From the IMG/VR virus record IMGVR_UViG_3300046522_000750: 64,000 nt of DNA; one strand, written 5' to 3'. Below, piece by piece: positions 15,491-31,672 of this stretch (its first letter is position 1; each line of letters starts with the position of its first letter). The DNA is from a virus. Taxonomy: Duplodnaviria; Heunggongvirae; Uroviricota; Caudoviricetes. Both the position numbers and the translations under genes were made by a program. The notes under the pieces are model-generated. The model was not told where the DNA came from, did no database searches, and saw only the letters and a list, made by a program, of their open reading frames with translations.

Positions 15491-16735
15491 CAACAAAAGC
15501 GCGAAATGCTCCACCCAATTGAGAAAAACAGGAGCCTGCGACTTCATTGACAATTGGCTGGAGATGGACAGCGCAGCGGCGTAGCCGCCATCGCTTGAAA
15601 TTCAAAAAATAGACCTCATAGTCGTTTGCATGACCGATATGAAATCGACCAAAACCCTGAAGATTCGAGTGCGCGACAAGCACGCAGCGCAGCTGCGTGA
15701 ATGGTCTCGTTCGGTGAATTTCGTGTGGAACTATGTGAACGAATTGAGCAGTCGCTCAATTCGCGAGCACGGTCGCTTTCTATCGGCATTCGATATCCAC
15801 AAGTACACCAACGGCGCCAGCAAAGAACTGGGTTTACACAGCCAGACCGTGCAGGGCATCGCCGACGAATACGTAACCCGCCGCAAGCAGTTCAAGAAGC
15901 GCCAGCTGCGCTGGCGCATCTCGGGCGGAGCGAGACGCAGCCTAGGCTGGGTGCCATTCAAAGTCGGTGCGGCGACTTGGAAAAATGGCCAGGTCTGCTT
16001 CAGCAAAGAGTACTTCAAGGTATGGGATAGTTACGGCCTGGCCGATTACAAATTCCGCGCCGGCAGCTTCAACGAAGACTCGCGGGGCCGCTGGTACTTC
16101 AACGTCGTTGTTGAGGTCGACCGAGAGCTATCGCCAGGCCAGGACGCCATCGGCATCGACTTGGGGCTGAAAACCGTTGCCACCTGCAGCGATGGTCACA
16201 AGCTTGAAAACGGACGCTTCTACCGCGATTTAGAGAAGGCGCTGGGCACCGCCCAGCGCGCCGGCAAGAAAGCCCGCGTGCGGGCGATTCACGCCAAGAT
16301 CGCGAACCGTCGAAAGGATGCTTTGCACAAATTCAGCACAGCGCTGGTGAAGCGTTGTGGCTTGATTGTGGTGGGCGATGTCAGCTCACTAAAACTCGCG
16401 AAAACCATGATGGCCAAGTCGGTGATGGATGCCGGCTGGGGCCAATTGAGAACGATGCTGGCCTACAAATGCGATCACGCAGGCATCCTTTTCAAGGTGA
16501 AAAACGAGAGCAACACCACCCAACCCTGCTCGGACTGCAAGAAATTGCCAGATTCGAGGCCGAGAGGTATCGCAGGGGGCTCGGAATAAGAGAATGGACT
16601 TGTAGTGAGTGCGGTGCCACTCACGACCGCGACGTCAATGCCGCCAAGAACATTCTCGCGCTCGGGCAAGAGCGTCCTACAGAGGGAATCCCCTTCCAAA
16701 TCACATGATTTGGTGGGGGTGGATGTCAATACTGC
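15491..16735 (+). mobile_element. IS200/IS605-family TnpB-only insertion sequence (about 1.24 kb) inserted 3' of TTAC
   Basis: Host B7 reading frame is broken after ...ttctctTTAC and resumes at 16736 (cagatctcgcaaaacag = DLAKQ...); element contains tnpB and a subterminal hairpin (GCGGCgtaGCCGC at ~15570). Confidence 0.75.
15630..16708 (+). pseudogene. tnpB: TnpB (IS605 OrfB-type RNA-guided nuclease), apparent -1 frameshift in a G5 run at 16575-16579
   Basis: ORF 15630-16589 (319 aa) carries RuvC-like core (IDLGLKTVATCSDG...) and continues in another frame as GLGIREWTCSECGATHDRDVNAAKNILALG (zinc finger plus RuvC-III) to 16708. Confidence 0.75.
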
Positions 16736-16791
16736 CAGATCTCGCAAAACAGGTAAAGGGACAGCTTCTGGAAGATTCATTGGGACTATGA
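16736..16791 (+). pseudogene. family B paralog B7, 3' fragment displaced by the IS
   Basis: Encodes DLAKQVKGQLLEDSLGL*, the family tail; in-register continuation of ...FSLP at 15490. Confidence 0.65.
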
Positions 16792-16862
16792 ATCGGATCA
16801 TTCGCCAAGCAAAAGCTCCCAGGCTAAAATGAAACGACGCCACTTAGGGAAGCACTCGGCCT

Positions 16863-17441
16863 ATGAAAAACCTCACCAAGCGCCAGCTCGAAGATTACGA
16901 CAACTGCAGAATTAGGCCGCCAGCAGACTACCAAGCCATGGACACCGACCAGCGCCGGGCCTTCGTCCTTCAGGAGATAGAGTCTGGTAAGCACTCCGTG
17001 GAGGAAAGCCTCTCCATTCACGACATTCTGCACTTCAGCGGGCAGACGGGCTGCGAAAGCCCTGAATACTTTCTCTATCGAATCCTCCTTGAGCGAAAAG
17101 ACCCCTCTGAAGTTGAGCAGCACCTGAAGGAAGATCTCGACTACATGCTGTTCTTCGAGCTTTACGGCATCGAGAGCGCCAAGACTCATCTGAAAAGTGC
17201 TCGGCTACTGGATCTCCATCACCTCATCGAATATTACGGTGATGACATCTACGTCAGTGCGAACGACATCGAGCTTATGCTCCACGAGCGAGGCTGTGAA
17301 GCCGTCGCTGCCGAGGTCACGAACAAAAAACTGTGCGAAAGCTACGTCGAGATATTTGGCCTTCAGTCCATCAAGTTTGTGCGAAAAGACGTCGCCAACA
17401 AGTTCAAGGGTGATCGACTAGAAGAGGGTCTCGGCCTATGA
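16863..17441 (+). CDS. LGL-tail family B paralog B8 (192 aa)
   Basis: Motifs DQRRAFVLQEIESGKHS, YFLYRILLERKDPSEVEQHL; tail KGDRLEEGLGL. Confidence 0.8.
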   Translation: MKNLTKRQLEDYDNCRIRPPADYQAMDTDQRRAFVLQEIESGKHSVEESLSIHDILHFSGQTGCESPEYFLYRILLERKDPSEVEQHLKEDLDYMLFFELYGIESAKTHLKSARLLDLHHLIEYYGDDIYVSANDIELMLHERGCEAVAAEVTNKKLCESYVEIFGLQSIKFVRKDVANKFKGDRLEEGLGL

Positions 17442-17502
17442 ATCCGATCAGAGACTAGGTGTTGTAGAATCGATAAGCGTTGTACAAAGAGAGCCAGCTT
17501 CT

Positions 17503-17545
17503 CAGCCCAAAGGCCGGCACCTCGAAGATCAGCTTGGCCTTTGAC
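17503..17545 (+). pseudogene. remnant of a family B gene (tail only)
   Basis: cagcccaaaggccggcacctcgaagatcagcttggcctttga encodes QPKGRHLEDQLGL*, which matches the B10 tail; no upstream ORF. Confidence 0.5.
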
Positions 17546-17616
17546 CGTCGACCAGCTTTCTTGCACCAGCAAGAGCTAGATTTAAACGCAGCCCCGTCAC
17601 CGGAAGTTACGACCTC

Positions 17617-17991
17617 GTGCAAAGAGAACGACCCCAGAAAACAGCTCGCGAGACTCTAGAGGCAAACATCGCCAAGGACGCCGCAACCATCAAGTCTCGC
17701 CTGGGCGCCAGAGACTTTGTATCGAGATGGGGTGTCGATAATTGCAAGCCATACTTAACGGAGGATTTATGGCTTGACGCATACTTATTGGTGAGCAACA
17801 GATCTGAAAAGAGCATGATTGCCGATATCCTGCATTCTCGTGGTGCTGAAAAAACCGCACAAGCCGCAACCACCCAGGAAAAGGGGATGGTGCTGATCGA
17901 GATCTTTGGGATGGGTGCCCACAAGCTCTTGTCCTGGGAGATATCTAACAAGGTCAAAGGCCGTCACCTAGAGAATGAGCTTGGCCTATAG
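17617..17991 (+). CDS. LGL-tail family B paralog B9 (short form, 124 aa)
   Basis: KPYLTEDLWLDAYLL core; tail KGRHLENELGL. Confidence 0.75.
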   Translation: MQRERPQKTARETLEANIAKDAATIKSRLGARDFVSRWGVDNCKPYLTEDLWLDAYLLVSNRSEKSMIADILHSRGAEKTAQAATTQEKGMVLIEIFGMGAHKLLSWEISNKVKGRHLENELGL

Positions 17992-18063
17992 CCTTCGCCT
18001 ACAATTTCTTGCGCCAGCAAGAGCTACGATTTCAGTAGACCAGTGACCAAGTGACAGGAATCC

Positions 18064-18447
18064 ATGCCGAGAACAAAGCCAAAGAAAACAACCAGGCATG
18101 TCTATGGCAACAGCCTCTCCAAAGACATCGCGCACATCTGGACTGGCCACGGAGCGAATATTCTTGCATCAAGATGGGGAGCGGTTAATTCCAGGGCGCA
18201 TCTCAGCGATGACCTGTGGCTGGACGCGTACCTGATCAGCCAATCCAAGGACGACATGGATCAGATGTTGATTATCAGCGAAATCCTCAAATATCGCGGC
18301 GTGGTACAAGTGGCGCAAGCCGCCACTACGACTGAAAAGGGGATGATCGTGATCGAAGTCTTTGGCTTCGAGGCGCACAAGTACCTACCCAGCGATATTT
18401 CCAGACAGGTCAAAGGCCGGCACCTTGAAGATCAGCTGGGCCTATAA
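18064..18447 (+). CDS. LGL-tail family B paralog B10 (short form, 127 aa)
   Basis: Close paralog of B9 (AHLSDDLWLDAYLIS..., VAQAATTTEKGMIVIEVFGFEAHKYLP); tail KGRHLEDQLGL. Confidence 0.75.
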   Translation: MPRTKPKKTTRHVYGNSLSKDIAHIWTGHGANILASRWGAVNSRAHLSDDLWLDAYLISQSKDDMDQMLIISEILKYRGVVQVAQAATTTEKGMIVIEVFGFEAHKYLPSDISRQVKGRHLEDQLGL

Positions 18448-18895: not shown

Positions 18896-19249
18896 ATGGA
18901 TAATCGGATTGGTTTGGCGCTCTTGTTCGCTGCTTGCCCGTTGTTCATGGCTGGATGCACTTCGGACATGTTTGTACAGCGCGAAGGTGTCGAGGTATCC
19001 AGGGCTCAGTTCAACAGCTTTGTGCCAAATAAAACCCACTCCTCCGCCGTCAAGGCAGCCCTTGGGTCGCCCTCACGCGTGCAGCGAAAGACTGGTCACG
19101 AGCTATGGATTTACAACTTCAAGCAATACAGCTCGAACCCGCTGGCCATCGATGAACTTAAGTCGCAATCGACCATGTTTGACTTCGACTCGAAAGGTAT
19201 ACTCATCAAGCGCTGGCAGCATGACTTCAAGGACAATGGGCTGGAATAA
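18896..19249 (+). CDS. outer-membrane lipoprotein, SmpA/OmlA (BamE-like) family
   Basis: Lipobox LFMAGC after signal peptide; G.T..QV...LG.P......G...W.Y core typical of BamE. Confidence 0.55.
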   Translation: MDNRIGLALLFAACPLFMAGCTSDMFVQREGVEVSRAQFNSFVPNKTHSSAVKAALGSPSRVQRKTGHELWIYNFKQYSSNPLAIDELKSQSTMFDFDSKGILIKRWQHDFKDNGLE

Positions 19250-19387
19250 TGACCGCCATGCCCTTGCCCTGCACCAATAACTCTTTCGCCTGACCAACCT
19301 GTCAGCCTTTGCCTTGCCTGTGTTTTTGCAGGCAAAAAATGGCAATTTTGGTAATATGTTTGGCATTCACCACGAGATCGACCCGCT

Positions 19388-19588
19388 ATGAGTGTTATGC
19401 GCCCCAACAAACCAGATTCAAGCCCCTGCAAAGGGATCTGCTCACATAATGTGGGCGGAGACGTTTGCACGGGTTGTGGGCGCACTGTGGAAGAGGTGCG
19501 GGACTGGAACCAGTATTCAAGCGAGAAGAAGATCGAGGTTAAACAGATATGTCGGGTGCGCTTGGGCTTTCCTCCGACCCAGGAATAA
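19388..19588 (+). CDS. DUF1289-type small Cys-rich (putative Fe-S) protein
   Basis: SPCKGICSHNVGGDVCTGCGRTVEEVRDWNQYSSEEK matches the DUF1289 cysteine pattern. Confidence 0.6.
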   Translation: MSVMRPNKPDSSPCKGICSHNVGGDVCTGCGRTVEEVRDWNQYSSEKKIEVKQICRVRLGFPPTQE

Positions 19589-19649
19589 CTCGGCACTCAA
19601 AGCGGTTGCCTTGCTGTAGACCTCCCACTTTTCCTTCCTGACCAACCTG

Positions 19650-19916
19650 GTGTTTTATATGGGCCCTACCGGAAGTCGCTGCATCGCTCATGGTGGCGAC
19701 TTGAACCAGACTGATTTGACGTGGCGGTGCGATGAGTGCGCTCGTTCTGGCATCAACAAGTGCCCCTGCGGAAGCCATGCCAGGCTGTTTGTGATGCCGT
19801 TGATGATAGGAGTCGCCTGCGAGTCCTGTACAGCCTCTGTGCTCACCGTAGGCGTCGGGAAGAACATTCGCACCATGTGGAATAACGGTCTTCGCGGACG
19901 TCAAGCGGATCGCTAG
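19650..19916 (+). CDS. small Cys-rich hypothetical protein
   Basis: 88-aa ORF with CxxC pairs (CDECARSGINKCPCGSHA, CESCTAS). Confidence 0.35.
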   Translation: MFYMGPTGSRCIAHGGDLNQTDLTWRCDECARSGINKCPCGSHARLFVMPLMIGVACESCTASVLTVGVGKNIRTMWNNGLRGRQADR

Positions 19917-20016
19917 AGAGCGGGTCTGGTTCGTTTCCACGCTGTCGCCTTTCCAACAGATTTTCCTGCCTGCCCAACCTGCTTTTGCCTTCCAGCTTTG
20001 CGGTGGCTTTTGCTGG

Positions 20017-20044
20017 CAAACAAAAAGACCCCGCATTGCGGGGC
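20017..20044 (-). terminator. rho-independent terminator of the Hsp20 gene
   Basis: Hairpin CCCCGC-att-GCGGGG (20029-20043) followed on the minus strand by T-run (complement of caaacaaaaa). Confidence 0.6.
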
Positions 20045-20061
20045 CTCGTTCCTGACCAGCT

Positions 20062-20505
20062 TTAAGCTGCGGTGACCTTGATGGTTCGCGGCTTCTCGGC
20101 TTCAGGGATGATCGCTTTGGCCCTGACGATCAGCATGCCTTGTTTGAAGGTCGCCTCCACTTCAACGGGGTTCGAGAACTCAAACGTGTGCGCGAACTCT
20201 TTGCGGGAAATACCCCTGGCGTAGAATTTCACTTCCTCTGGAAGGGCAGTTGGCTTGCCGGAGATGGTCATCCGCTTGCCTTCGATAGAAACGTCGATGT
20301 TGTTTTCATCGTAGCCGGCCAGTGCCATCTGAATTTCGAAGTCATTGTCTCCGTGCATCAGGATGTCAGTGGGCGGGTATGGAATGGCCTTCAGGTCAGC
20401 GCGTGCGTTGGCAGTTGGCCTGGCCATGTAGTCAGTGCCAAATAGCAGGTTGTGATTGATCAAATAGGCAAGTTGCGATTGTCTCATTGCGCTGATCGTT
20501 CTCAT
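20062..20505 (-). CDS. ibpA: small heat-shock protein, Hsp20/IbpA family
   Basis: alpha-crystallin domain (YPPTDI...FEIQMALAGYDENNIDVSIEGKRMTISG...GISRKEFAHTFEF...GMLIVRAKAIIPEAEKPRTIKV); start placed at Met6 of the ORF because AGGA lies 8 nt upstream (ORF extends to 20520). Confidence 0.8.
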   Translation of the reverse strand: MRTISAMRQSQLAYLINHNLLFGTDYMARPTANARADLKAIPYPPTDILMHGDNDFEIQMALAGYDENNIDVSIEGKRMTISGKPTALPEEVKFYARGISRKEFAHTFEFSNPVEVEATFKQGMLIVRAKAIIPEAEKPRTIKVTAA

Positions 20506-20716
20506 TGTGTTCGTCCTCATTGAGCGACTGGTAGTTAACGCAGCCCGAAGGCCTGCGCATCACGCCGATAGGCCGTGACAAAATAATTTTAAAATATTGA
20601 CAAAACTGATTTCAAGCCCCTTGAACACATTTTTATTAACATTTTTCATGTTCTGGTATGTTTACAGAATACCCTTTAAGGGTTATTCTTTGTTCATTCC
20701 AACACAGGACATCGAC

Positions 20717-21115
20717 ATGACGCCCAATGCCTACGCCAAACTCAACGAGTTGAGAAACAAATCCCAAGAGCAACAGTTAATCCACGTTGATGAGCTGAAT
20801 GAACCAGAGCGGGATCGCACCCTTTTGTATGGGTTTACCTGTGACCGTGACACCTTTCACGTGTACCTCAAAGATGGTCAGATTCATCGCGTGATCTACA
20901 AATTCGGCGGCCAGACCATCAATGCCATCAGTGGTGTTGAACTTGCGGTGAATTTGCTGTCGCCAGACAAACGCACCTACCCAGAAGCATGCGATGAACA
21001 GTTTTGCTTCCTGATGCATTACAAGGATCAGCACGTCAGCTATACGACTTATGATCATGAACGTAAGCCTGCACAATTCTCCGGTAAGCTGATCGAAGAG
21101 CTGATCCCGGCTTAA
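20717..21115 (+). CDS. hypothetical protein (ORF extends to 20597, but the first 40 codons are AT-rich promoter-like DNA)
   Basis: ATG at 20717 preceded by acAGGAcatcgac; ORF to 21115. Confidence 0.5.
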   Translation: MTPNAYAKLNELRNKSQEQQLIHVDELNEPERDRTLLYGFTCDRDTFHVYLKDGQIHRVIYKFGGQTINAISGVELAVNLLSPDKRTYPEACDEQFCFLMHYKDQHVSYTTYDHERKPAQFSGKLIEELIPA

Positions 21116-21170
21116 CGACTATGCTGACGTGGCTCGTTGATCAGGCCCTCGCACTCAGGAAAATTACCAG

Positions 21171-21590
21171 ATGTTCATCAAAGATACCTACAGCCAGCGT
21201 CGACTCGAGAAGTTGTTTCATCGCGAGGTGCTAGGCGTTGTCGACTTTGAAGCTCTGCACGAAAGGATCAGGTCGGCGATCAGGCAAGCCAAGGTCTTGA
21301 ATGCCAAGTTTTCGGTCTCCTACACGATTCGAGAATCTGAGGCTGAAGGCCAAGGCTGGATGTCCTACACAATCAAACTCACCGGCAATACCGGCTTTTT
21401 CTTCAAACGGTCTGTTTCGGCACATGTTCAATTCGAGTCGATTTGTCTTTACGAGGAGCCCGTGCAGGTCGAGGCGTCCACCGAAATCAAAGAAACTCGT
21501 AACGTTTTTGAGACGACCACGTTGTATCAAACTTATATCGGACAGGGGCGCGGCAAGCGCACGATGCCCGGCACTGACCACCTCGTTTGA
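21171..21590 (+). CDS. hypothetical protein (139 aa)
   Basis: Long ORF. Confidence 0.5.
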   Translation: MFIKDTYSQRRLEKLFHREVLGVVDFEALHERIRSAIRQAKVLNAKFSVSYTIRESEAEGQGWMSYTIKLTGNTGFFFKRSVSAHVQFESICLYEEPVQVEASTEIKETRNVFETTTLYQTYIGQGRGKRTMPGTDHLV

Positions 21591-21591
21591 T

Positions 21592-21632
21592 TGACTACTT
21601 GACCACTTGACTACTTGACTCGATAAGATATT
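21592..21632. repeat. tandem octamer repeat (TTGACYAC) x4-5
   Basis: ttgattgactacttgaccacttgactacttgactcg directly after the stop at 21590. Confidence 0.6.
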
Positions 21633-21683
21633 CGCTGCTAGCATTTACTCATTGGCTCAATGTTGAGCCGGTGAGGATGCGCC

Positions 21684-22310
21684 ATGAGCATTGAAATTAT
21701 TGAGCAACCAGCAGAAAACGCCATTTCGCTGGAACTGGCAAAGGCTTCCCTTCTGCAAACATTCACTGACAAGATCAACGCACTACCGCCATTCATGGTG
21801 ATGGAAGCGGTCTTGATGGATGATGACGCCTCGCTGGCCTTCATAACGCAGAAGCGAGACAAGCCGCCAAAACCGCTCAGCATCAGAGTTCGAAACCAAT
21901 TGGCCTTCGCCAAGTTGAAGGGTAATGCTTTCGAATCACTCCACAAGTCGTATGACCTTGTGGGGTCTAATGATGTGTGCACAATTCTGGGTATTACCAA
22001 GCAAGCCTTAAGTCTCAAGACCAGGGCTGGCGAGGTCGTGGCGTACACCAAGGATCGTCGCAAGTATTTCCCGGCTTTTCAGTTCGTGAGCAACAAGGTT
22101 TCGCCCGACGTCGGCAACATCATCAAGGCTCTTGGCATTGACCCTACGAATGAGACGATGATGAATTTTCTTATTCTCTTCCTGGCGCAGTCCATGGAGT
22201 TCCACGGCCCATCAAAGCCCGAGATTCCTCGGTACAAGCTGCTCGGCGATGCCAGCGCTATCACCATCATAATTCGCGACTTTAACAACCGCGCTGAAAT
22301 GGGCAAGTGA
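21684..22310 (+). CDS. hypothetical protein (208 aa), possible HTH segment
   Basis: Long ORF; VCTILGITKQALSLKTRAGEV resembles a helix-turn-helix. Confidence 0.5.
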   Translation: MSIEIIEQPAENAISLELAKASLLQTFTDKINALPPFMVMEAVLMDDDASLAFITQKRDKPPKPLSIRVRNQLAFAKLKGNAFESLHKSYDLVGSNDVCTILGITKQALSLKTRAGEVVAYTKDRRKYFPAFQFVSNKVSPDVGNIIKALGIDPTNETMMNFLILFLAQSMEFHGPSKPEIPRYKLLGDASAITIIIRDFNNRAEMGK

Positions 22311-22379
22311 TCCGCCCAGTCCAAAGAAAAACTCGCTTCGGCGCGTTTTTCTTTGATTTCATTTAATTGTCAGTCACTG

Positions 22380-23609
22380 TCAATCGAACCCAGGCGTCGA
22401 GTCATCCAGCCTGTCACGCAGCCTCAGCGCAGGCAGCTCATCAACGTCGATGGAGAAAAGTCCCATCTTTTCGCGCAACTCGGCGATTCGCTCTGGACTG
22501 ACTCCTTCATCAAAATCCTGTTGAGCCAGCTTTTCAGGCACCGCCACCCTCGGCTCGCAGATGAAGCGGCGATCCACGACACCAATGTGCTGTTCAATCG
22601 CATGGAACAGGGCCTTAGGGTCGTTGCCGATGTACCTGCCCGAATGTTTGAGGCTGTTGAGCTCAACCAGAACTGGCCCGCGCTCAGTGATGCCGAAGTC
22701 GGCCACATACGACGGCGCCAAATGGGTGTTCTGCTGGGCGAATTCTTCAGCCAGCTTTTGAATCGCAGCCGGCACCGGATAGCTCACATAGTCGGTGTAC
22801 GACGACAGGCTGGTGACCTTTCCATCGACAATAAACGCTCGGTATTCGCCCTTGTGCTCGGGCGCCCTTTCGAACGTCAGCACATCAGAAAGCATCACAC
22901 CCTCTTCAGGGTCGAACAGACACAGTCGGCCAGGCTCCATGCTGTCCCGATACGGGCAATACCACCTGGGCATCTGGAAGAAGGCCATGAAATCACTGTC
23001 TTTAGCGCTTGGGTCGAAAATCATTTTGTCCCCAAACAGAGCTTTTAGATCTCCGAGCGGCTTGATCATCGCGTACAAGTCATCCTCGGTCTGCAGGACG
23101 TGGTGCAGACTGAAGCCACTGCCCTTCTCCACTCCCTTGATGAACACAGGAGTACGGATATCCCCGGCAGCCATCATCTCGTTGAACCTCGCCTTGCTCA
23201 GATCAACCACAGTGCGCTGTAGAAAGTGGTCTGAGTTGTTGAGGTGTCTTGGCCAGTGCTTGACGACATCGTCATTGACCTCGGAGATGTAGCGCGCAAA
23301 ACCGTCCAGGTCGGGATGAGAGAGGTTGACCGAATTCAAACGCATGACCACTTGGCTGGCCAGGCTCATTTTGGTCACGTCGGTGTTGGAATCGATGATC
23401 TCGACCGGCTTGGTCTTATCGCCAAAGCTGAAGTTCTTGCTGACCACCACATAAGGGATTTCAAGCGCCCGGCAGGCCAGTATTTCCCCGGCGTGTTCGC
23501 GGTTGACGCAGTAATCCATTTCTTCGTTCTGCTCGGTGTCGCCATGAGCGGCAACACCCAAAAAGTCACTGAGGCAATCGGCTGACTCAAATTCAAAAAC
23601 TACTAGCAT
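22380..23609 (-). CDS. ATP-grasp fold protein (RimK-like peptide/protein ligase family)
   Basis: C-terminal ATP-grasp signature FGITERGPVLVELNSLKHSG (compare RimK RGPLVMEVNASPG), EYRAFIVDGKV, PVFIKGVEKGSGFS; lies 30 nt downstream of the tail-bearing gene 23640-24278 on the same strand. Confidence 0.55.
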   Translation of the reverse strand: MLVVFEFESADCLSDFLGVAAHGDTEQNEEMDYCVNREHAGEILACRALEIPYVVVSKNFSFGDKTKPVEIIDSNTDVTKMSLASQVVMRLNSVNLSHPDLDGFARYISEVNDDVVKHWPRHLNNSDHFLQRTVVDLSKARFNEMMAAGDIRTPVFIKGVEKGSGFSLHHVLQTEDDLYAMIKPLGDLKALFGDKMIFDPSAKDSDFMAFFQMPRWYCPYRDSMEPGRLCLFDPEEGVMLSDVLTFERAPEHKGEYRAFIVDGKVTSLSSYTDYVSYPVPAAIQKLAEEFAQQNTHLAPSYVADFGITERGPVLVELNSLKHSGRYIGNDPKALFHAIEQHIGVVDRRFICEPRVAVPEKLAQQDFDEGVSPERIAELREKMGLFSIDVDELPALRLRDRLDDSTPGFD

Positions 23610-23639
23610 TGGAAAGCTCCTGTAGGGGGTTGTTGGCGC

Positions 23640-24278
23640 TCAAAGCCCTAATCGCTCAGACAGCAACTCTCCAGCGTCCTTGCGGCTGATAACACGCTCT
23701 AGGCCGATCAGATCGTATTTGCGCACGAGCCTGCCCAGTGCTTTCTGCGAAACGTGATTGATCAGGAAATCTTTATGGCCTTGCATCTCAGTGAAAAACT
23801 TCAGAACCACACCCTGTGCGAACTCCTGATCAACGTTTTTCGTGCCATAGGAGGCCGACCCAACACCCAGCAGCTTCAGAACACCCGAGTGGTCAAGCTT
23901 GACGGTTTCGGCCCATAGGGCATGCACGAACAGCCTGACGTCCGCCTTGTCTTGCTTGAGTGCCTTCATCGTCACGGCCAGCATTTGGTAGTACGCCGGC
24001 ATGGTCATGAATTTGGAGCATTCCACATGCACCTCTGCCAATTTGTAGCAAATAAACTCGCGAGACCGCTTCGGGTCTGTTTCCAGGGAACAAAGCAGGT
24101 AAAAGCCATATTCGGTACGGGATTCAAGGCCGCGAATCAGGTCGACATTAAAGCCGTGATTAACGGTAGAGATTGCCGCATCCAGCTGGCGCTGCTCACG
24201 TTCGGGAAGCCAGGAAAAACGACCCTCCACGCCGGCAACCTTCATCACGTTCAGCCTAACAAGATCGTCGTAATTCAC
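23640..24278 (-). CDS. family B-like protein carrying the LGL tail (212 aa)
   Basis: C-terminus ...ISRKDAGELLSERLGL; FFTEMQGHKDFL aligns to the B-family (F)LDIFGIEAL segment. Confidence 0.6.
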   Translation of the reverse strand: MNYDDLVRLNVMKVAGVEGRFSWLPEREQRQLDAAISTVNHGFNVDLIRGLESRTEYGFYLLCSLETDPKRSREFICYKLAEVHVECSKFMTMPAYYQMLAVTMKALKQDKADVRLFVHALWAETVKLDHSGVLKLLGVGSASYGTKNVDQEFAQGVVLKFFTEMQGHKDFLINHVSQKALGRLVRKYDLIGLERVISRKDAGELLSERLGL

Positions 24279-24413
24279 GTTTTAGTCTCCAATTTGAACC
24301 AGTATAGCCGGGGAGAGGCTGGTGGATGAAGCCATTCCCTGGGGTCTGATATTAGGAAAAACCCGATCCAGATCATCGTTTCTGCAATAAGTTCAAAAAC
24401 TCCCAAAAGAAAA

Positions 24414-25217
24414 TTGAAAATATTTCCCGTGATGGCTAAGATGCGCGCCCACTTCAACGCCTATCACAACACGATCATGAAAATTTCCCATATTTTCTCA
24501 GCTTTTTTGTTTCTGACGATTCCTGTCTCCGAAAAGCTCATGGCCTCTGAAATCATGGGTCAGACCTGCCCGAATGTTGGACAGCACCGCATCAAGTTCC
24601 CCGACCGTTTCATGCAGTACGAAGACGATCTGTATCCGAGCATCAACGCCATTACCTGCGGTACTGAGCCCAACAGTATCCAGATCCAGGTCAGCCTCCC
24701 CTACGTCGAGCGAGCGCAGGAAATCCCTGGCACCATCGAGAAAGAGCACAATCTGCAGATCACGCTCAAGCCTCTGTCGCCGACCTCCAGCCGACCGATC
24801 AAGACCACCCTTAAGTCAATCTACAACCCGAAGAACTACGCGGACGCCAAGAGCACGCCGTTCCCCAAGGTTGTGGTGGAAAACGGCCTGACTTACGTCA
24901 AGGGTCGCCCGGCAGAAGGAGGAACGGATCGCGTTGATTTTTACTTGAAGCCTGACAAAAAGGGCAACACGGATCTGGCCATCTACTGCTACCTGTCCGA
25001 TGGGCTTCCCGATGCCAAAAGCTGCCTGATGGGTTACGCCGATAAAGAATACGAGCTGGACGTCCTGGTGAAGATCAATGAGTCGGAAGTGCGCGACTAC
25101 AAGAATATCAAGCAGTCGGTTTCGGAAATCATCGACAGCATCATTGAGAAAAAAGAAGGGCCTAGGAAGGATGTGAGCTTTCCGATGAGCCAGGCGCCCG
25201 ACCATATCGGCGTTTGA
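24414..25217 (+). CDS. secreted hypothetical protein (likely start at Met 24477, MKISHIFSAFLFLTIPVSEKLMA signal peptide)
   Basis: Signal-peptide-like segment; long ORF. Confidence 0.55.
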   Translation: MKIFPVMAKMRAHFNAYHNTIMKISHIFSAFLFLTIPVSEKLMASEIMGQTCPNVGQHRIKFPDRFMQYEDDLYPSINAITCGTEPNSIQIQVSLPYVERAQEIPGTIEKEHNLQITLKPLSPTSSRPIKTTLKSIYNPKNYADAKSTPFPKVVVENGLTYVKGRPAEGGTDRVDFYLKPDKKGNTDLAIYCYLSDGLPDAKSCLMGYADKEYELDVLVKINESEVRDYKNIKQSVSEIIDSIIEKKEGPRKDVSFPMSQAPDHIGV

Positions 25218-25457
25218 TTGAATCCATCCTGCCCAAAGTGTTAATGTATTGAGGTCTACAGCGCCAAGCTGTCCGGCCTGCTGAACCAGTTTTACTGGCA
25301 CCAGGCTGGCTTGTGATGGACGTGCTAGGGGGAAAACACCAGAGCCAATGGCTACAGCGAGCGATTCGCCTTTCATGCCTCAGCAGGTGGCGATTGTAGA
25401 TGCGAAAAAGGCGAAGCCAGTGATGGTTTCGCCTTTTTTGCTTTAGGGCCTACTGGA

Positions 25458-26321
25458 TTACAAGCCCAGGCCGCCATCATATTTTATGGGCGTTGTGCGC
25501 TTCTCGACTTCGATTTCGATTTCGTGGCGCTTTGCGATCTCAGCCGCCACTTGTGGGAAGCCGGCATCGCGCAGCTTATTGGTCACGCTGAGGGCATGTG
25601 CACTGTGATCTTGACCTGCCTCTTCATAAGCTTGCGAATAAAAGCCAGTAAGCGCCGGGATAGCTTTGATCTCATCAGCTGTCAGTGGGTTTTTAGCGAA
25701 CTCATCCACTCTGAAAATCTGAGCCGATGGCGAGAATTCAATGGCATAGTTACCAAACGTTGACCCTGTTGCCATCTGAGAAAGCCACTCGCGCTCCGTG
25801 TAGATGCTGCGCACAGGATCCATAAAACTTAAGCCTGTACTTTCGGATTCTGGGGCGGTGAGCGACAGAGCAGAAGCTGCCATAAAAGTGGCAGCCTGAG
25901 GGGTTTGGATGGCATCCACGAACGCGTCGACGAACTCCTTGCGGGTGACGGGAGTAATGTCGGACAGCGAATTTAAAATGGCTTTTAGATTCTTTTCGGA
26001 AAACATGCTCCAGCCAGGGTTATTCAGCTGTGCTCTCATGGCGTCTAGATCTGATTCTTCGATCTTGTGCAGATAAAGCAGTGGCGTACCCGCATATTCT
26101 GAATCGGCAGCAGCGAACTCATAGCGTTCAAGATCGGATAAAGGACTCTTGGCGCCTTTAGCCCTGAGGTACAGACCGAAGAACGGCTCACCATGCGCAT
26201 TTGGATGATCCATGGTCGGATCAAAGCCTTCGAAAATGCCGTTGGCGGATGATTTGTATTCTGTGCTCACGGGAAGCTCCATTCGTTTCATTAAGTCCAG
26301 TGTATCGACTGAGCTTGACAT
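25458..26321 (-). CDS. hypothetical protein ending in GGLGL (family C, 287 aa)
   Basis: Paralog of 26417-27250 (FGLY.RAKG / FGFYPRPEAK; AFV.AIQ.PQ; LTADE.KA.P motifs); C-terminus ...IKYDGGLGL. Confidence 0.7.
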   Translation of the reverse strand: MSSSVDTLDLMKRMELPVSTEYKSSANGIFEGFDPTMDHPNAHGEPFFGLYLRAKGAKSPLSDLERYEFAAADSEYAGTPLLYLHKIEESDLDAMRAQLNNPGWSMFSEKNLKAILNSLSDITPVTRKEFVDAFVDAIQTPQAATFMAASALSLTAPESESTGLSFMDPVRSIYTEREWLSQMATGSTFGNYAIEFSPSAQIFRVDEFAKNPLTADEIKAIPALTGFYSQAYEEAGQDHSAHALSVTNKLRDAGFPQVAAEIAKRHEIEIEVEKRTTPIKYDGGLGL

Positions 26322-26364
26322 GGAACAATCACCGGCAGATCTCTCTATGAAAGCCGTTCACGCC

Positions 26365-26400
26365 TAAAAAATAAAAAAAGACGCGCCAGGCGGCGCGTCT
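26365..26400 (-). terminator. rho-independent terminator after gene 26417-27250
   Basis: 9-bp perfect stem AGACGCGCC-aggc-GGCGCGTCT (26379-26400), followed on the minus strand by TTTTTTATTTTTT. Confidence 0.8.
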
Positions 26401-26416
26401 CTTATTTACCCTCAAA

Positions 26417-27250
26417 TCACATGCCGAGGCCTGGATCTTCGTGTTTGCGCTGTGGCTTTGTTACCTCAGCCTCAAGCTCAAATTTCTTCGTGATGTATGC
26501 CGAAATTTCAGGGTAGCCGGCACTCTCCAGCTTCTTGGCGCACGACTCTGCATGGCGGCCCAGGTCATGCTCAACCTCAGCATACACCTCTGGAATTTCA
26601 CCGAGAATAAAAGGCATCGCCAAGACTTCATCCGCAGTCAGTGGGGCCGCCTCCCAAGCGGCAGCCCGAAAATACTGGCCAGACATCACAAAGTCACTCG
26701 GATTCGAGTCTTTCAGGTTATAGGCGACTGAAGCCAGCTCAACCATCCTCGCGGTGAACTGATTATCAGGGTTATTTCCAAGTACGCTTACACCAGGTAA
26801 ACCAAGCTCGCCCCGGACGTCACTTAATCTTCGGCTAATCGCGACCAACGCGTAGAACCCCGCGCACTGAGGCTGCTGAATCGCTTCAACATAAGCCTTG
26901 GCAAATTCACTTTTAGTCACGTCCGAAAATGCTTTTGAGGAATTCATCACCGACAGCGCCAACCGTGAAGAGCTTACGAAAATCTCCTGGCCGGCAGCAG
27001 CTGCTTTCAAGTTCTCAAGATCATCAATTGTGATCGCTCGATCAAATTCTGGATAAGGAATTTTTGAACGAAAATCAGTGAATTTATTTGGAGATCGTTT
27101 TGAAAACGCGATGAGGAAGGACTCTGTTTTTGCTTCGGGTCTTGGATAAAACCCAAACACAGGATCTCCATTGACCTTGGACAGATCCTGAGTCGGATCT
27201 AAACCTTCATAAATTTTTGCGATTTCTGGGTTTGGTTTAATGCTGGTCAT
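26417..27250 (-). CDS. hypothetical protein ending in PGLGM (family C, 277 aa)
   Basis: Paralog of 25458-26321; C-terminus ...KHEDPGLGM. Confidence 0.7.
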   Translation of the reverse strand: MTSIKPNPEIAKIYEGLDPTQDLSKVNGDPVFGFYPRPEAKTESFLIAFSKRSPNKFTDFRSKIPYPEFDRAITIDDLENLKAAAAGQEIFVSSSRLALSVMNSSKAFSDVTKSEFAKAYVEAIQQPQCAGFYALVAISRRLSDVRGELGLPGVSVLGNNPDNQFTARMVELASVAYNLKDSNPSDFVMSGQYFRAAAWEAAPLTADEVLAMPFILGEIPEVYAEVEHDLGRHAESCAKKLESAGYPEISAYITKKFELEAEVTKPQRKHEDPGLGM

Positions 27251-27344
27251 CGAGAAACTCCGCTGATAACTGTCCTTTCAGCCAGTATAAGGAGGGATCG
27301 AAGGGGCTAGCAACAGGAACCCCTCCAATCATTTCCTGACCAAC

Positions 27345-27827
27345 CTACGCCGTTTCGGCTTCAGGCACAGCCTGTGGCAGATCACCGGTATTCGCATACA
27401 AGTTCAAGTGCTTGATGAACCGGGCCACATCCTCGTGAATTTCATAGGGTCGGTCAAGCGTCCTGCTGCGGCGCTCGTTTACTGCACTTATCTTGGTCAG
27501 GTCAGTGGGCTCGACATCCTGGATCATGTAGCTGCCACCGCCCTGTATCTCGATAAACAGCAGGTTCCAGTTGCCGTGCATCGAATGATGCAGCGAGTGC
27601 AGGAAAGTCGCGAAGGTCTGCGCAGAATCTTTCGCTAATTCAAAACCTGTCGGCATGAAAGTCAAAGGATCAATCTTGGTTTCATAAATCCAGTTGGCCA
27701 GCATCGAGAAGTTCTTGACCTGCTCGCTGTCGCCCTTGATGCCCAGGTAACGTTCGACACTGAAGATCGCTTCGTGTGTTTTGTCGATCCAGCCTTGTTT
27801 TGTCGCATCCATCATGGAAGATCTCAA
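27345..27827 (-). CDS. hypothetical protein (160 aa)
   Basis: ORF; ATGA overlap with upstream gene. Confidence 0.5.
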   Translation of the reverse strand: MRSSMMDATKQGWIDKTHEAIFSVERYLGIKGDSEQVKNFSMLANWIYETKIDPLTFMPTGFELAKDSAQTFATFLHSLHHSMHGNWNLLFIEIQGGGSYMIQDVEPTDLTKISAVNERRSRTLDRPYEIHEDVARFIKHLNLYANTGDLPQAVPEAETA

Positions 27828-28450
27828 TCTTTTCGTTTACGCACAACGGCGATTAATTTATCGAACAGCTGACGAGCACCGCTGGACGGTATCTCGGTCG
27901 GAATTGGCGGTGGCGGTGCCTTGGCCTTCTCTTCTTCAGCCTTGTTTTTGTAGTACTGCGCAATTTGGCGCTCATACGGTGTGCGCTGGAGTGAATCCTC
28001 AAGCGATTCAAACCGAATGGGCTTGGCCTGACCCACCTCCAGGCTGTAGTGGTGCATCAGCCGAAAACAGGAGATGTGCGGCTTGTTGTCCATGGCCACG
28101 GCCATCGCCGTGTACAACACCGGGTCAATGCGCTGCAGCCAGCGAAAATTCTGAAGGCTCAAGGGGCTGACCTGGTTCGCAATCACATACATGCGGATGA
28201 TCGCCGTACGCCAATAGAAATGCGCAGTAGAGGCCTCTTCAAGCTCTTCATGCACGTCGGTTGGCGGGCCTTTGTCGATAAACCTGGATAGGGTCATCAA
28301 GGCCATCTCGGTGTCCCCTGACACGTGCATGGACAAACCACGGATCAGTTGCGTGTAAGCCTTGAACTGCAAGATCAACGGCTCCACGGTCAAAGCCGGG
28401 CCGAGTTGTTCCAGGGCTTGTTCAATCAGTTCGCTGTGCAGAATTTTCAA
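27824..28450 (-). CDS. hypothetical protein, paralog of 28477-28959 (start moved to TTG 28450)
   Basis: ORF runs to 28552 but would overlap the upstream paralog by 76 nt. The TTG at 28448-28450 follows AGGGGAG and makes the N-terminus (M)KILHSELIEQALEQLG, which aligns with MDLLHKVFGFPELREIDIQLG of the paralog. Confidence 0.5.
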   Translation of the reverse strand: MKILHSELIEQALEQLGPALTVEPLILQFKAYTQLIRGLSMHVSGDTEMALMTLSRFIDKGPPTDVHEELEEASTAHFYWRTAIIRMYVIANQVSPLSLQNFRWLQRIDPVLYTAMAVAMDNKPHISCFRLMHHYSLEVGQAKPIRFESLEDSLQRTPYERQIAQYYKNKAEEEKAKAPPPPIPTEIPSSGARQLFDKLIAVVRKRKD

Positions 28451-28476
28451 GGCCTTTTCTCCCCTACCAGGCCAGC

Positions 28477-28959
28477 CTACTTCGCCTGAACATTCATCAG
28501 GGGGCGTTTGGCTTCTTGTTCCATATTGAATTGAATCATTAAGTTGGCGCAATCCTGATTGCAGTGAGGCTTGCCCAAATGTTTCATGGCGCTATACAGA
28601 GTGGGGTCAATTTCCTCGATCCAATGAAGACGACCGTTGAGGATTGCCGAGACCCGTCTGGCCTTTTGATGGGCCGACAATACGGCAGTTCGCCAATAGC
28701 CGTTATACCGCCTGGCCAGCGACATCACCGAGGATTCACGCTCCCGCACCAGTTGAAGCTCCCCCTGCTCCACACCTTCATTAGCAATCAGGGCGTAGCC
28801 GGGGTAGTTATTGCGTTCACTGACCAGCTGAAACCCGACCAACAATTGAAGGTAAAGCGCCTTCAGCTCGGGCGCCGGCTCATCATGGATGGCAGCCCCA
28901 AGCTGAATGTCAATTTCCCGTAATTCGGGAAAACCAAATACCTTGTGCAACAAATCCAT
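28477..28959 (-). CDS. hypothetical protein (160 aa), paralog of 27824-28450
   Basis: Shared YWRTA...IDP.LY.AM block. Confidence 0.55.
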   Translation of the reverse strand: MDLLHKVFGFPELREIDIQLGAAIHDEPAPELKALYLQLLVGFQLVSERNNYPGYALIANEGVEQGELQLVRERESSVMSLARRYNGYWRTAVLSAHQKARRVSAILNGRLHWIEEIDPTLYSAMKHLGKPHCNQDCANLMIQFNMEQEAKRPLMNVQAK

Positions 28960-29980: not shown

Positions 29981-30916
29981 TTATTTGGCAGACTTCTTGA
30001 ACAGCCCAAGCACCTTCTGGAACTGGGTCACGACCGCCAACACCAAGGCACCGATCAGGACACCTGCCACGCCGTCGAGGATCACCGGCGTAACCACCTT
30101 CATCACCCCACCAACCACTGGCAAGGCCTCAGCAGCATGCTCAATCGAATGCTTGAGGTCGGATAGGACAGGGATGCCATGAAGGATGATCCCCGCGCCG
30201 ACCAGAAACATCGCACATGTGCCGATAATTGTCAGCAATTTCATGAGGATAGGTGCGGCTTGAATGATCTTGCGACCCACGGCCTTGGCCACCTTGTTCT
30301 GTTTCTTTTCCAGGTAGAAGCCGACGTCGTCCATACGAACGATAAGGGCAACGAGGCCATAAACGCCCACCGTAACCAGCAGTGCAACCGCCGATAGAAC
30401 AAGAAACTGATTCAGCAGAGAAGCACCGGCCACGGCGCCGAGGGCGATGGCCATGATTTCCATGCTGAGAATGAGATCCGTTCTCACAGCCCCATTGATT
30501 TTCTGTCGCTCTAGCTCTGCCGGCGACTTGCCCATAGCGGCTTTTGCTTCTTCAGCGTCGGCAGCATCATCGGCGGAGTGGTCGAGGTACTTGTGGGCGA
30601 TCTTTTCAAAGCCCTCCAAACACAGGTACGCACCACCCACCATCAGGATCGGGGTAATGGCCCACGGTGCAAGGGCGCTGATCAGCATCGCGCCTGGAAC
30701 CAAGATGGCTTTGTTTTTGAGCGATCCCTTAGCTACGGCCCACACTACTGGGAGTTCGCGCTCAGCCCGTACGCCAGAAACCTGCTCTGCGTTGAGGGCC
30801 AAATCGTCGCCGAGAACACCTGCCGTCTTTTGCGTGGTGGTCTTGGTCAGCAATGCGACGTCATCCAACAGAGTGGTAACGTCGTCAAACAGTGTGAGCA
30901 GGCTACCGCCAGCCAT
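29981..30916 (-). CDS. yedI: DUF808 family inner-membrane protein (YedI-like)
   Basis: MAGGSLLTLFDDVTTLLDDVA...KTAGVLGDDLALNAEQVSGVRAERELPVVWAVAKGS is near-identical in pattern to E. coli YedI N-terminus; multiple TM helices. Confidence 0.85.
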   Translation of the reverse strand: MAGGSLLTLFDDVTTLLDDVALLTKTTTQKTAGVLGDDLALNAEQVSGVRAERELPVVWAVAKGSLKNKAILVPGAMLISALAPWAITPILMVGGAYLCLEGFEKIAHKYLDHSADDAADAEEAKAAMGKSPAELERQKINGAVRTDLILSMEIMAIALGAVAGASLLNQFLVLSAVALLVTVGVYGLVALIVRMDDVGFYLEKKQNKVAKAVGRKIIQAAPILMKLLTIIGTCAMFLVGAGIILHGIPVLSDLKHSIEHAAEALPVVGGVMKVVTPVILDGVAGVLIGALVLAVVTQFQKVLGLFKKSAK

Positions 30917-30997
30917 TTTGTGTGTTCCTTAATAATGGATTGAGATTGCACTATGCCTGATTATTGGCAAATTGTCAATTATGCCTTTAATAGCAGA

Positions 30998-31648: not shown

Positions 31649-31672
31649 CGTGACGGATCCTGAATGGGTGAA

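Follow-up and report, generated by a model that had tools for sequence, protein, structure and literature searches.

The 409-aa open reading frame (ORF) on the minus strand at 22380..23609 (stop codon included) of the 64,000-nucleotide stretch of DNA analysed here, the window, is predicted from its conserved residues to encode a catalytically intact, uncharacterised ATP-grasp enzyme of the R2K clade. The gene belongs to the backbone of a family of ~0.9–1.1-Mb megaplasmids with a Dot/Icm-like type IVB secretion/conjugation system. Its upstream neighbour encodes a protein with a C-terminal tail, ending in Leu-Gly-Leu (LGL), that recurs on many unrelated proteins. The account favoured here, tentatively and at somewhat less than an even chance, is that the ORF specifies a protein-modifying ligase belonging to the same module as the tail-bearing proteins, and that the tail is a targeting signal, not a ligation site. 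What the analysis shows is the fold, the catalytic residues, the layout of the operon, the phyletic distribution and the statistics on tails and neighbours; ligase activity, a protein substrate and a targeting role for the tail are what we infer. A substrate is known for none of the bacterial R2K ATP-grasps, and this subfamily brings an obvious candidate: the stereotyped tail, found on ~12% of genes in 1-Mb Pseudomonas megaplasmids and on half of the genes in the window. Should the enzyme edit the tail, bacteria would have their first example of a system that writes C-terminal tails across a proteome. Should it not, its operon nonetheless assigns it to the very large and uncharacterised cargo set that goes with a Dot/Icm-like plasmid system.

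Layout of the operon and its neighbours

Two genes are arranged in tandem on the minus strand: a 212-aa tail gene with a GTG start (23640..24278) and, downstream, the 409-aa ORF. The first product ends in SRKDAGELLSERLGL (LLSERLGL). The 30-nt spacer read from the sequence between them (23610..23639, minus strand) holds a Shine–Dalgarno motif, AGGAG, at 23617–23621, 7 nt ahead of the ATG of the 409-aa ORF, and a consensus scan found no minus-strand terminator within it. From this layout the genes are predicted to form an operon sharing one transcript. An earlier sequence-only reading had described the same arrangement, and its ORF coordinates, strand, spacing, C-terminal end and operon layout were all borne out by the ORF map and a reading of the sequence. 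On the 5' side of the operon, the gene map shows a divergent intergenic region (24279..24413) with an ORF on the plus strand (24414–25217) at its far side. Since a consensus scan of this region found no minus-strand sigma-70 match, an operon promoter here is only presumed. An origin in a phage or an ordinary plasmid was rejected, as a megablast search of window positions 20000–28000 against phage and plasmid collections returned no matches.

The 212-aa partner is an all-alpha helical-repeat protein, an ARM/HEAT-like scaffold without a catalytic signature. Its tail, KDAGELLSERLGL, is encoded at 23643..23681 (minus strand) and is defined by family-wide conservation, the conserved end reading RK(D/G)xGxLLx(D/E)(Q/R)LG(L/V/I/M) (alignment A3). 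This end fits the window-wide consensus L(K/R)(G/A)xLLE(E/D)xLGL and is modelled as a confident terminal helix (residues 198–209). The name 'B-like', under which the gene had been grouped, suits the tail but not the body; no homology was detected between the body and either the ~190-aa family (11180–18447) or the ~290-aa family (33904–63945). Homology to other tail families was rejected: hhalign assigned probabilities of 0.2–1.2%, and HMM and BLAST comparisons with the genes flanking the enzyme in clade II (see below) found nothing. On PLSDB plasmids, B-like proteins have no tblastn match.

A conserved block lies upstream of the operon. It includes two paralogous genes (25458..27250, minus strand; 287 and 277 aa; 31% identity, E 3e-27) with variant tails, ...YDGGLGL and ...HEDPGLGM, whose orthologues adjoin the B-like and ATP-grasp genes at loci L001, L002, L011 and L030. 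Next are two tandem small proteins (27824..28959, minus strand) carrying the C-terminal cytoplasmic domain of DotM. Pfam DotM_C scores 29.7 bits for 28477–28959 (cut-off 27) and 26.5 bits for 27824–28552, and precomputed DotM_C matches occupy the same position in L002, L011, L013, L014 and L030. In Legionella, the cytoplasmic domain of DotM binds acidic C-terminal effector signals (PMC5802825). The DotM_C link cannot be carried over to pMPPla107, because tblastn found no match to the small DotM_C-like proteins on PLSDB plasmids, pMPPla107 and pBASL58, which both bear tails, included. Assignment of the locus to a known defence system was rejected: PADLOC gave no meaningful match, only a weak DrmA hit (E 0.0024) on the DotM_C-like ORF 27824–28552, and an NCBIfam search on the same question gave none.

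Fold and catalytic residues of the enzyme

Profile and structure searches agree with the earlier proposal that the 409-aa ORF belongs to the ATP-grasp family. The Pfam models R2K_2 and R2K_3 score 44.7 and 42.7 bits, against cut-offs of 26.2 and 26.3. The AF2 model (pLDDT 84.2, pTM 0.79) has the three-domain ATP-grasp fold, comprising pre-ATP-grasp, RAGNYA and kinase-like domains, and its best Foldseek matches are PsnB, LysX, RimK, MdnB/C and ArgX. Among solved structures, the closest are ligases whose substrates are protein or peptide carboxylates: LysX/ArgX (acting on LysW), RimK (on S6) and the graspetide cyclases. Pfam returned no RimK-type match at E values up to 0.1, which places the enzyme outside the RimK family. 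The only PHROG match is to a family of unknown function.

Three parts of the protein can be distinguished, all encoded on the minus strand. (i) A pre-ATP-grasp-like N-terminal domain (approximately residues 1–130; 23220..23609) was delimited from the secondary structure of the model and from conserved columns, and carries an NE[ED]xxYCxxRE helix and a WP motif; its conserved columns are N27, E28, Y32, C33, R36, E37, W118 and P119 (alignment A1). (ii) The catalytic ATP-grasp module (approximately residues 131–345; 22575..23219) was assigned from columns invariant across 25 homologues and from the features set out in PMC4431377. Its residues, in full-length numbering, are K158, K162, CPYR at 218–221, E255, R257, D304, E316-x-N318 and R325; the homologue alignment omits Met1, so that its numbering is one lower. 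(iii) An acidic C-terminal extension (residues 346–409; 22383..22574), defined from the model and from homologue C-termini, ends in DDSTPGFD and is mostly of low confidence, with pLDDT below 50 at model residues 363–370 and 386–408.

The three motifs from which the family had been recognized are present at residues 154–165 (PVFIKGVEKGSG), 255–265 (EYRAFIVDGKV) and 310–319 (RGPVLVELNS), and they hold the pairs K158/K162, E255/R257 and E316/N318, invariant in the 25-homologue alignment. The catalytic set expected of an ATP-grasp enzyme is a Lys ending the RAGNYA domain's strand 2, an Asp in the kinase-like domain's strand 4 and an ExN ending strand 5 (PMC4431377). These correspond to K158 (strand VFIKG), D304 (YVADFG) and E316-L-N318, again without exception among the 25 homologues. 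R257, within EYRAF, is the Arg typical of amide-forming ATP-grasps by the criteria of the same paper, and K162, four residues past K158, is the second Lys that characterizes the R2K clade; both are invariant. R2K enzymes also characteristically lack the linker Lys between the pre-ATP-grasp and RAGNYA domains and the ssxGbGl loop motif; the loop of the window enzyme reads GVEKGSGFSL. In R2K.3 proteins ExGD replaces ExN in the last conserved strand, and the window enzyme has ELN there. Because the ExN (E316, N318) is invariant, the enzyme is considered R2K.2-like, although the R2K_3 model also scores. A protein-modifying peptide-ligase role has been predicted for R2K enzymes (PMC4431377), and the window enzyme would likewise bind ATP-Mg, phosphorylate a protein carboxylate and ligate an amine to it, giving a peptide-type modification.

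Distribution of the enzyme and the tail

The tail is far more frequent in the window than chance would give: 47 of 92 ORFs in the greedy map end in [LIM]G[LIVMF], whereas of the 139 other six-frame ORFs only 2 end in even the looser pattern [LIVMF][GS][LIVMF]. Homology comparisons place it on at least five unrelated protein bodies, and 29 of 235 genes (12%) carry it in a random sample of pMPPla107. Tail codons are synonymously diverse, and the tail peptide itself is therefore under selection. A graspetide-type Lys–Glu cross-link within the tail was rejected, since 14 of 48 tails have Arg at −11. No description of the tail was found in the literature, that on pMPPla107 included, and a tblastn search of phages with a family-A protein found nothing.

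A C-terminal, modular tail on many unrelated proteins of a type IVB-encoding replicon, as pMPPla107 is by annotation, has the character of a putative translocation signal; within the window no type IVB locus was seen, only the DotM_C-like genes. According to the favoured account, the tail would be a modular targeting signal on >100 unrelated proteins, and its plausible readers would be the type IVB coupling machinery or the DotM_C-like proteins encoded nearby. The enzyme would be co-expressed with tail-bearing proteins; its gene lies within their arrays, and numerous relatives of the enzyme themselves end in a degenerate tail. Several points count against this account: a Vibrio megaplasmid has a type IVB system and the enzyme but no tails, DotM_C-like proteins had no match on pMPPla107 or pBASL58, the window enzyme itself ends in an only weakly tail-like sequence, and the LGL-COOH end is much more conserved than known Dot/Icm signals.

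The enzyme is narrowly distributed. All seven PLSDB matches are plasmids of 0.88–0.97 Mb, and close relatives are confined to ~0.9–1.1-Mb Dot/Icm-type megaplasmids, namely pMPPla107, pBASL58 and uncultured relatives. PLSDB types pMPPla107 and pBASL58 as MPF_I, and the annotations of pMPPla107 and of a Vibrio plasmid include Dot/Icm-like genes. The enzyme gene lies in a syntenic block with DUF808, DotM_C and HSP20 genes. Full-length cluster representatives, with N-terminal domain and catalytic module, number only ~30 among 1.84 billion proteins; most R2K.2 proteins (~300 aa) match profile residues ~230–340 alone. A contig scan of 185,579 species-representative genomes found no close relative, and a scan of viral contigs found no phage relatives. 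A housekeeping function was rejected, as those 185,579 species gave only four partial matches of 28–39% identity, in Firmicutes, Tenericutes and Bacteroidota MAGs. The sequence-only reading had named a housekeeping ligase conserved in genomes without the tail as a finding that would count against it. The first half of that description does not apply and the second applies in part: homologues with at least 35% identity were found only where tails occur, but those of ~30% identity occur in tail-less contexts, on a Vibrio megaplasmid (125 kb with tails on 2 of 160 genes) and at L022 and L034 (0 of 39). The Vibrio subgroup lacks the CPYR loop.

Where the enzyme and tail genes do meet, the arrangement recurs. 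Pairing of B-like and ATP-grasp genes is seen again in L001, L002/L003 and L030. In enzyme clade II (pMPPla107, pBASL58, L015, L020 and L021), ~515-aa DLGL-tail genes without homology to the B-like gene abut both sides of the enzyme gene; in pBASL58 the upstream gap is 56 nt and the downstream gap, according to which start is called, 2–11 nt. In a random pMPPla107 sample, just 3 of 199 non-tail genes (1.5%) are so placed, and the background for flanking by tail genes is 1.5–2.5%. Against this, enzyme and tail genes are not adjacent at L013, L019 and L017, and the B-like family occurs away from the enzyme at L031 and L032. With tail genes clustered and accounting for 12–50% of the genes nearby, a degree of adjacency is to be expected, and vertical descent within the plasmid family confounds co-occurrence. 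The proposed tie between ligase and tail gene is only circumstantial. The C-terminus of the enzyme itself is tail-like, with a hydrophobic–Gly or Gly–hydrophobic pair within the last six residues, in 15 of 23 close homologues versus 4 of 20 distant ones. Homologue ends are often xLG or LGI (...DLG, ...GLG, ...LGI); that of the window enzyme, STPGFD, is only weakly tail-like.

These observations bear differently on the alternatives. The enzyme may be a backbone component whose target, a host protein or a small molecule, has nothing to do with the tail, adjacency being a coincidence in a replicon filled with tail genes. An enzyme family older and wider than the tail, a PHROG match of unknown function and a window half made up of tail genes are consistent with this, as is the prediction that phage R2K enzymes modify host proteins, with a translation component proposed as an example (PMC4431377; PMC7824862). 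Such a coincidence is rather unlikely: tail genes flank the enzyme in two clades, across very short gaps and with partners that are not homologous, over a 1.5% background, and the C-terminus of the enzyme itself varies with the presence of the tail family.

We regard as unlikely, and rate slightly lower, the proposal of the sequence-only reading that the LGL tail is the substrate. One enzyme would then serve the whole tail-bearing proteome, the operon partner first, activating the terminal Leu alpha-carboxylate or a conserved Glu/Asp at −4 to −6 and ligating an amino acid or other amine, in the manner of RimK with S6, LysX with LysW and TTL with tubulin. The tandem genes with a separate Shine–Dalgarno motif for the enzyme, the two kinds of recurring tail-gene neighbour, the structural proximity to ligases of protein C-termini or peptides, the invariant R257 and the restriction of closer homologues to tail-bearing replicons all argue for it. 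So does the enzyme end (...DLG, ...GLG), which resembles the tail minus its last residue and could therefore be a pseudo-substrate. The exceptions to adjacency, the tail-less homologues, the local abundance of tail genes and shared plasmid descent argue against it, and the B-like tail is modelled as a confident helix, not a floppy end. The Vibrio megaplasmid combines a type IVB system and the enzyme without tails, so neither needs the tail. On balance the tail is more likely a targeting signal than a ligation substrate.

An extended form, in which bacteria would have an equivalent of the tubulin tail code, is improbable. The R2K ATP-grasp would write or repair the ...LGL tag on >100 plasmid proteins, for example by re-adding a terminal Leu to ...LG ends or by adding residues to the tail, and would thereby gate type IVB recognition or stability, its own ...DLG/...GLG end serving as pseudo-substrate. 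Least probable is a non-ligating, Cdc123-like role in which ATP binding chaperones folding or assembly of the helical-repeat partner(s), as Cdc123 does for eIF2: a scaffold-like partner would suit it, but the full catalytic set, amide-ligase Arg included, is invariant in 25 homologues, and partners differ between clades.

Comparison with known systems

The enzyme resembles R2K.2 proteins (DUF4343/Pfam R2K_2; Burroughs, Zhang and Aravind 2015, PMC4431377) in its Pfam scores over the cut-offs, in K158 and K162, in the standard ExN and in sporadic spread on mobile elements; a Pseudomonas amygdali sequence already stands in the alignment legend of that paper. It differs in having a conserved ~130-aa N-terminal domain and the CPYR loop. 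A literature search found neither a description linking R2K.2 enzymes to megaplasmids or tail-bearing genes nor a biochemical activity for any bacterial R2K.2/DUF4343 enzyme. Cdc123 (R2K.1), an eIF2 assembly factor, is eukaryotic and has another partner, and the window protein is structurally nearer to true ligases; no ligation by Cdc123 is known.

RimK/S6 and LysX-ArgX/LysW are distant, at ~10–13% identity to the window enzyme. Their substrates end in Glu, not Leu-Gly-Leu, and each enzyme has one dedicated substrate, not a proteome-wide tail. Tubulin tyrosine ligase and the TTLL enzymes share the ATP-grasp fold and modify a conserved C-terminal tail common to a protein family. The graspetide (RiPP) cyclases PsnB, MdnB/C and CdnC are among the top Foldseek matches and act on C-terminal core peptides. 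They need short leader–core precursors, whereas the neighbours of the window-type enzyme are folded proteins of 212–550 aa; the adjacent genes encode at least 212 aa, and the 30-nt spacer holds no evident ORF for a short precursor. The candidate cross-link pair in the LGL tail, K/R at −11 with E at −6, lacks a conserved Lys.

The tail itself can be compared with the Dot/Icm signals of Legionella, which include the E-block and a hydrophobic −3 residue and are read by DotM. Both are modular C-terminal elements on many unrelated proteins of a replicon that encodes a type IVB system, both place acidic residues beside a hydrophobic −3, and DotM_C-domain proteins are encoded near the tail genes. The Legionella signal is loose and Glu-rich and lies at −10 to −17, and known Dot/Icm signals are far less conserved than this stereotyped end, in which a near-invariant LGL-COOH is accompanied by an acidic residue at −4 to −6.

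An ATP-grasp enzyme and its operon

The 409-aa ORF (22380-23609, minus strand) and the 212-aa ORF (23640-24278, minus strand) noted in the sequence-only reading are both present at those positions. The second, the B-like gene, starts with GTG. Its product ends ...SRKDAGELLSERLGL, an instance of the 'LGL'-type C-terminal tail common to many proteins of the window and of related megaplasmids. The two genes were described as an apparent operon, and the layout agrees: they are separated by a 30-nt spacer, in which the enzyme gene has its own AGGAG (23617-23621, 7 nt 5' of the ATG) and no minus-strand terminator-like hairpin was found. The downstream neighbour (21684-22310) is convergent and the upstream neighbour (24414-25217) divergent; the operon in the window therefore consists of two genes, with a presumed promoter. 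The convergent plus-strand gene, kept in position in relatives L002 and L030, weakly matches an Xre/MbcA/ParS antitoxin middle domain (E 0.013).

Pfam assigns residues 234-337 of the 409-aa protein to the R2K clade of ATP-grasp enzymes (R2K_2, 44.7 bits, cut-off 26.2; R2K_3, 42.7 bits, cut-off 26.3). An AlphaFold2 model with 25 homologues as input (pLDDT 84.2, pTM 0.79) is confident except for the final ~45 residues, which are largely disordered. The top Foldseek matches in the PDB are the ligases PsnB, LysX, RimK, MdnB/C and ArgX (E ~2e-7, ~380 aligned columns). Profile and structure searches thus confirm the ATP-grasp assignment, and the three motifs on which it was first based lie at residues 154-165, 255-265 and 310-319. 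The catalytic template for R2K enzymes was defined by Burroughs et al. (PMC4431377, section 5). All its positions are present and invariant across the 25 aligned homologues: K158, with which RAGNYA strand 2 ends; K162, the additional lysine from which the clade takes its name; R257, an arginine characteristic of ligases that form amides; D304; and the ExN motif E316-x-N318. Alignment and model omit Met1, so that residue numbers there are one lower. Since it carries ExN and not ExGD, the enzyme is R2K.2-like rather than R2K.3-like. Features specific to the subfamily are a conserved N-terminal domain of ~130 aa (NE[ED]xxYCxxRE, WP) and a CPYR loop.

When 1.84 billion representatives were searched exhaustively with a profile, 723 R2K-type matches came up, only ~30 of them full-length. 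The legend of the 2015 R2K alignment (PMC4431377) already includes a sequence from P. amygdali. A literature search turned up no biochemical work on any bacterial R2K.2 (DUF4343) enzyme; the literature on R2K enzymes offers only a prediction, peptide-type protein modification in genetic conflicts. The clade is known, though biochemically uncharacterised; the enzyme adds a new and distinctive subfamily member to it.

Distribution and genomic setting

It is close to certain that the gene encodes a catalytically intact R2K ATP-grasp, belongs to the backbone of a megaplasmid family and is co-transcribed with a tail-bearing gene. No close relative was found in 185,579 species, each scanned in one genome, or in a scan of viral contigs. 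Matches in PLSDB are confined to seven plasmids of 0.88-0.97 Mb: pMPPla107, pBASL58, that of Pseudomonas sp. FeN3W and four from Vibrio. Contigs carrying metagenomic and genomic relatives reach 1.06 Mb, apart from one of 4.3 Mb in a P. taiwanensis assembly. The enzyme is not housekeeping. The sequence-only reading had named a housekeeping ligase of tail-less genomes as fatal to its model; the species scan contradicts the housekeeping part, and tail-less contexts do occur for homologues of ~30% identity.

In the closest relatives the enzyme gene lies in a syntenic block of Band_7, DUF808, two DotM_C-like, variant-tail, B-like, ATP-grasp, HSP20, DUF1289 and BamE-like genes, and the window holds the same genes. 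The conserved backbone genes on either side of the operon, at 18896-20520 and 29981-32317, are a lipoprotein-like ORF (at the position of BamE in relatives), DUF1289 (3.8e-15), HSP20 (3e-12), DUF808 (2e-109) and two Band_7/SPFH paralogues. Elsewhere in the window, a Phd/YefM antitoxin gene (2986-3246, minus strand; Pfam 7e-11) and the 133-aa ORF downstream of it (2588-2989, minus strand), which lacks a Pfam match, overlap and probably form a toxin-antitoxin pair. The ORF at 7815-8471 (minus strand) has a weak match, under the cut-off, to ART-PolyVal, an ADP-ribosyltransferase of polyvalent proteins (E 2e-4).

PLSDB types pMPPla107 and pBASL58 as MPF_I. The annotation of pMPPla107 includes DotD, DotG, DotH, DotI, a T4CP and type IVb pilus genes. 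This plasmid also has genes of its own for SmpB, ParC/ParE, a subunit of ribonucleotide reductase and several radical-SAM proteins (sampled loci L026 and L028, the L028 observation at 837336-837794), a load of housekeeping paralogues that is jumbo-phage-like. The 925-kb plasmid of Vibrio vulnificus FORC_036 (L033, L018, L006) carries a 31%-identical ATP-grasp, with a Dot/Icm-like type IVB locus and a type IVb pilus, a set similar to that of pMPPla107. Despite the type IVB locus, PLSDB classes it as non-mobilizable and assigns it no MPF.

The C-terminal tail

Within the window, 47 of 92 greedy-map ORFs end in [LIM]G[LIVMF]; the looser [LIVMF][GS][LIVMF] ends 2 of the 139 other six-frame ORFs. 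The extended consensus is L(K/R)(G/A)xLLE(E/D)xLGL. The tail is found on unrelated protein bodies. The codons of the last residues are synonymously diverse, and the peptide is therefore under selection. The largest family comprises 34 tandem paralogues of ~290 aa (33904-63945, minus strand), mostly with 4-nt overlaps, all ending ...L(K/R)GxLLE(E/D)xLGL. The sole relative found in PLSDB is one weak match, 23% identical, on the FeN3W megaplasmid; phages gave no relative. A second family has 11 members (11180-18447, plus strand), nine of which end ...KG(R/Q)HLE(D/E)xLGL (exceptions 14379-14735 and 14950-15207); its array is broken by an IS605 OrfB/TnpB-like gene (15630-16589; Pfam OrfB_IS605 1.2e-16). 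Comparison of the two by hhalign aligned the C-terminal ~130 residues (E 7e-4, probability 26%), which suggests a distantly related shared region; what reads as the 'tail' in these two may be the terminal part of a larger shared domain.

The B-like gene is a tail-bearing singleton in the window. Its family forms 16 sequence clusters, all ending RK(D/G)xGxLLx(D/E)(Q/R)LG(L/V/I/M). A variant-tail pair (25458-26321 and 26417-27250, minus strand, within 25458-27250) has relatives at L002 11239-12492 and L030 7877-10473; this family, with ends such as ...YDGGLGL, ...RKHEDPGLGM, ...RKHDDDLSPGM and ...DDGPSL, is found together with the B-like and ATP-grasp genes in related replicons.

On pMPPla107, a pre-chosen random 200 kb (L025-L028; 100-150, 300-350, 500-550 and 800-850 kb) contained 29 genes of 235 (12%) ending ...RDxx(F/M)(G/A)xDLGL. 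They often form arrays, 17 of them within 500-550 kb, and extrapolation gives roughly 120 on the whole plasmid. All 29 are annotated only as hypothetical proteins, and no mention of the tail was found in the pMPPla107 papers. The 910-kb FeN3W plasmid (L029, L017) has a degenerate tail, D-hydrophobic-x-hydrophobic (...KHDMGL, ...SNEFGL, ...NNDLSI, ...SIDLEI); a PilV shufflon adhesin is also annotated there. The tail is absent from 125 kb of the FORC_036 Vibrio plasmid (2 of 160 genes match), where no other C-terminal motif is enriched.

Relation of enzyme and tail

The co-occurrence of ligase and tail genes is upheld in part. The B-like/ATP-grasp pairing recurs in L001, a P. putida contig (enzyme 49% identical), in L002/L003 (89%) and in L030, and in L011 with one intervening gene; in L002 and L030 variant-tail genes (...DLSPGM) also lie 3' of the enzyme. 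In clade II, a second enzyme clade of 35-42% identity (pMPPla107, pBASL58, L015/L016, L020 and L021), the enzyme sits inside an array of ~515-aa DLGL genes, adjoining on both sides, which have no detectable homology to the B-like gene. Of the 199 non-tail genes in the random pMPPla107 sample, 3 lie between two tail genes and 5 have a same-strand tail gene upstream. The arrangement in clade II therefore serves as an independent replicate, nominally significant at p ~0.015-0.025. Against this, no tail gene adjoins the enzyme in L013, L019 or L017, B-like genes are not near it in L031 and L032, and ~30%-identity homologues occupy tail-less settings on the Vibrio plasmid and in L022 and L034 (tails on 0 of 39 genes nearby). 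In the Vibrio subgroup YFNPWIGE replaces the CPYR loop, so its specificity may differ; L022 and L034 keep CPYR.

Tail genes are also abundant and clustered, and co-occurrence inside one plasmid lineage is confounded by descent. That the enzyme acts on an unrelated host or small-molecule target, and lies beside tail genes by coincidence, is unlikely. That the tail is itself the ligation substrate, as the sequence-only reading proposed, is doubtful: the recurrent pairing is in its favour and the tail-less settings against it. The enzyme's own C-terminus also speaks for this model. Following a disordered acidic stretch, many close homologues (among sequences P0004-P0022) end ...DLG, ...GLG, ...SLG, ...KLG or ...LGI, ends that look like the tail minus its last residue. 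A Gly-hydrophobic pair falls within the last six residues of 15 of 23 close homologues versus 4 of 20 distant ones, which mostly have acidic or aromatic ends (...LDEF, ...FDEM, ...LEW). A non-ligating, Cdc123-like chaperone is a very improbable identity for a protein with every catalytic position in place.

The reading tentatively favoured is that the enzyme would be a protein-modifying ligase that shares an expression and cargo module with the tail-bearing proteins, and the tail a modular targeting signal of the type IVB kind. What is new is the recurrent embedding of the enzyme among tail-bearing genes, together with its tail-like end. The tail system is the more surprising feature, and the ATP-grasp provides a concrete experimental handle on it. 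The signal role of the tail is itself tentative, and is weakened by the tail-less Vibrio relative with the same machinery. A type IVB-type signal would fit because Dot/Icm-like machinery is present on these plasmids and because the tail has an acidic residue together with a hydrophobic one at -3. It would also fit because two DotM_C-domain proteins are encoded nearby. These small, adjacent genes (27824-28552 and 28477-28959, minus strand; 26.5 and 29.7 bits, cut-off 27) encode the DotM C-terminal cytoplasmic domain only, without the transmembrane part. They are kept in position in L002, L011, L013, L014 and L030, and tblastn found no match on PLSDB plasmids. DotM binds acidic C-terminal signals (PMC5802825), and the pair are candidate readers of such signals.
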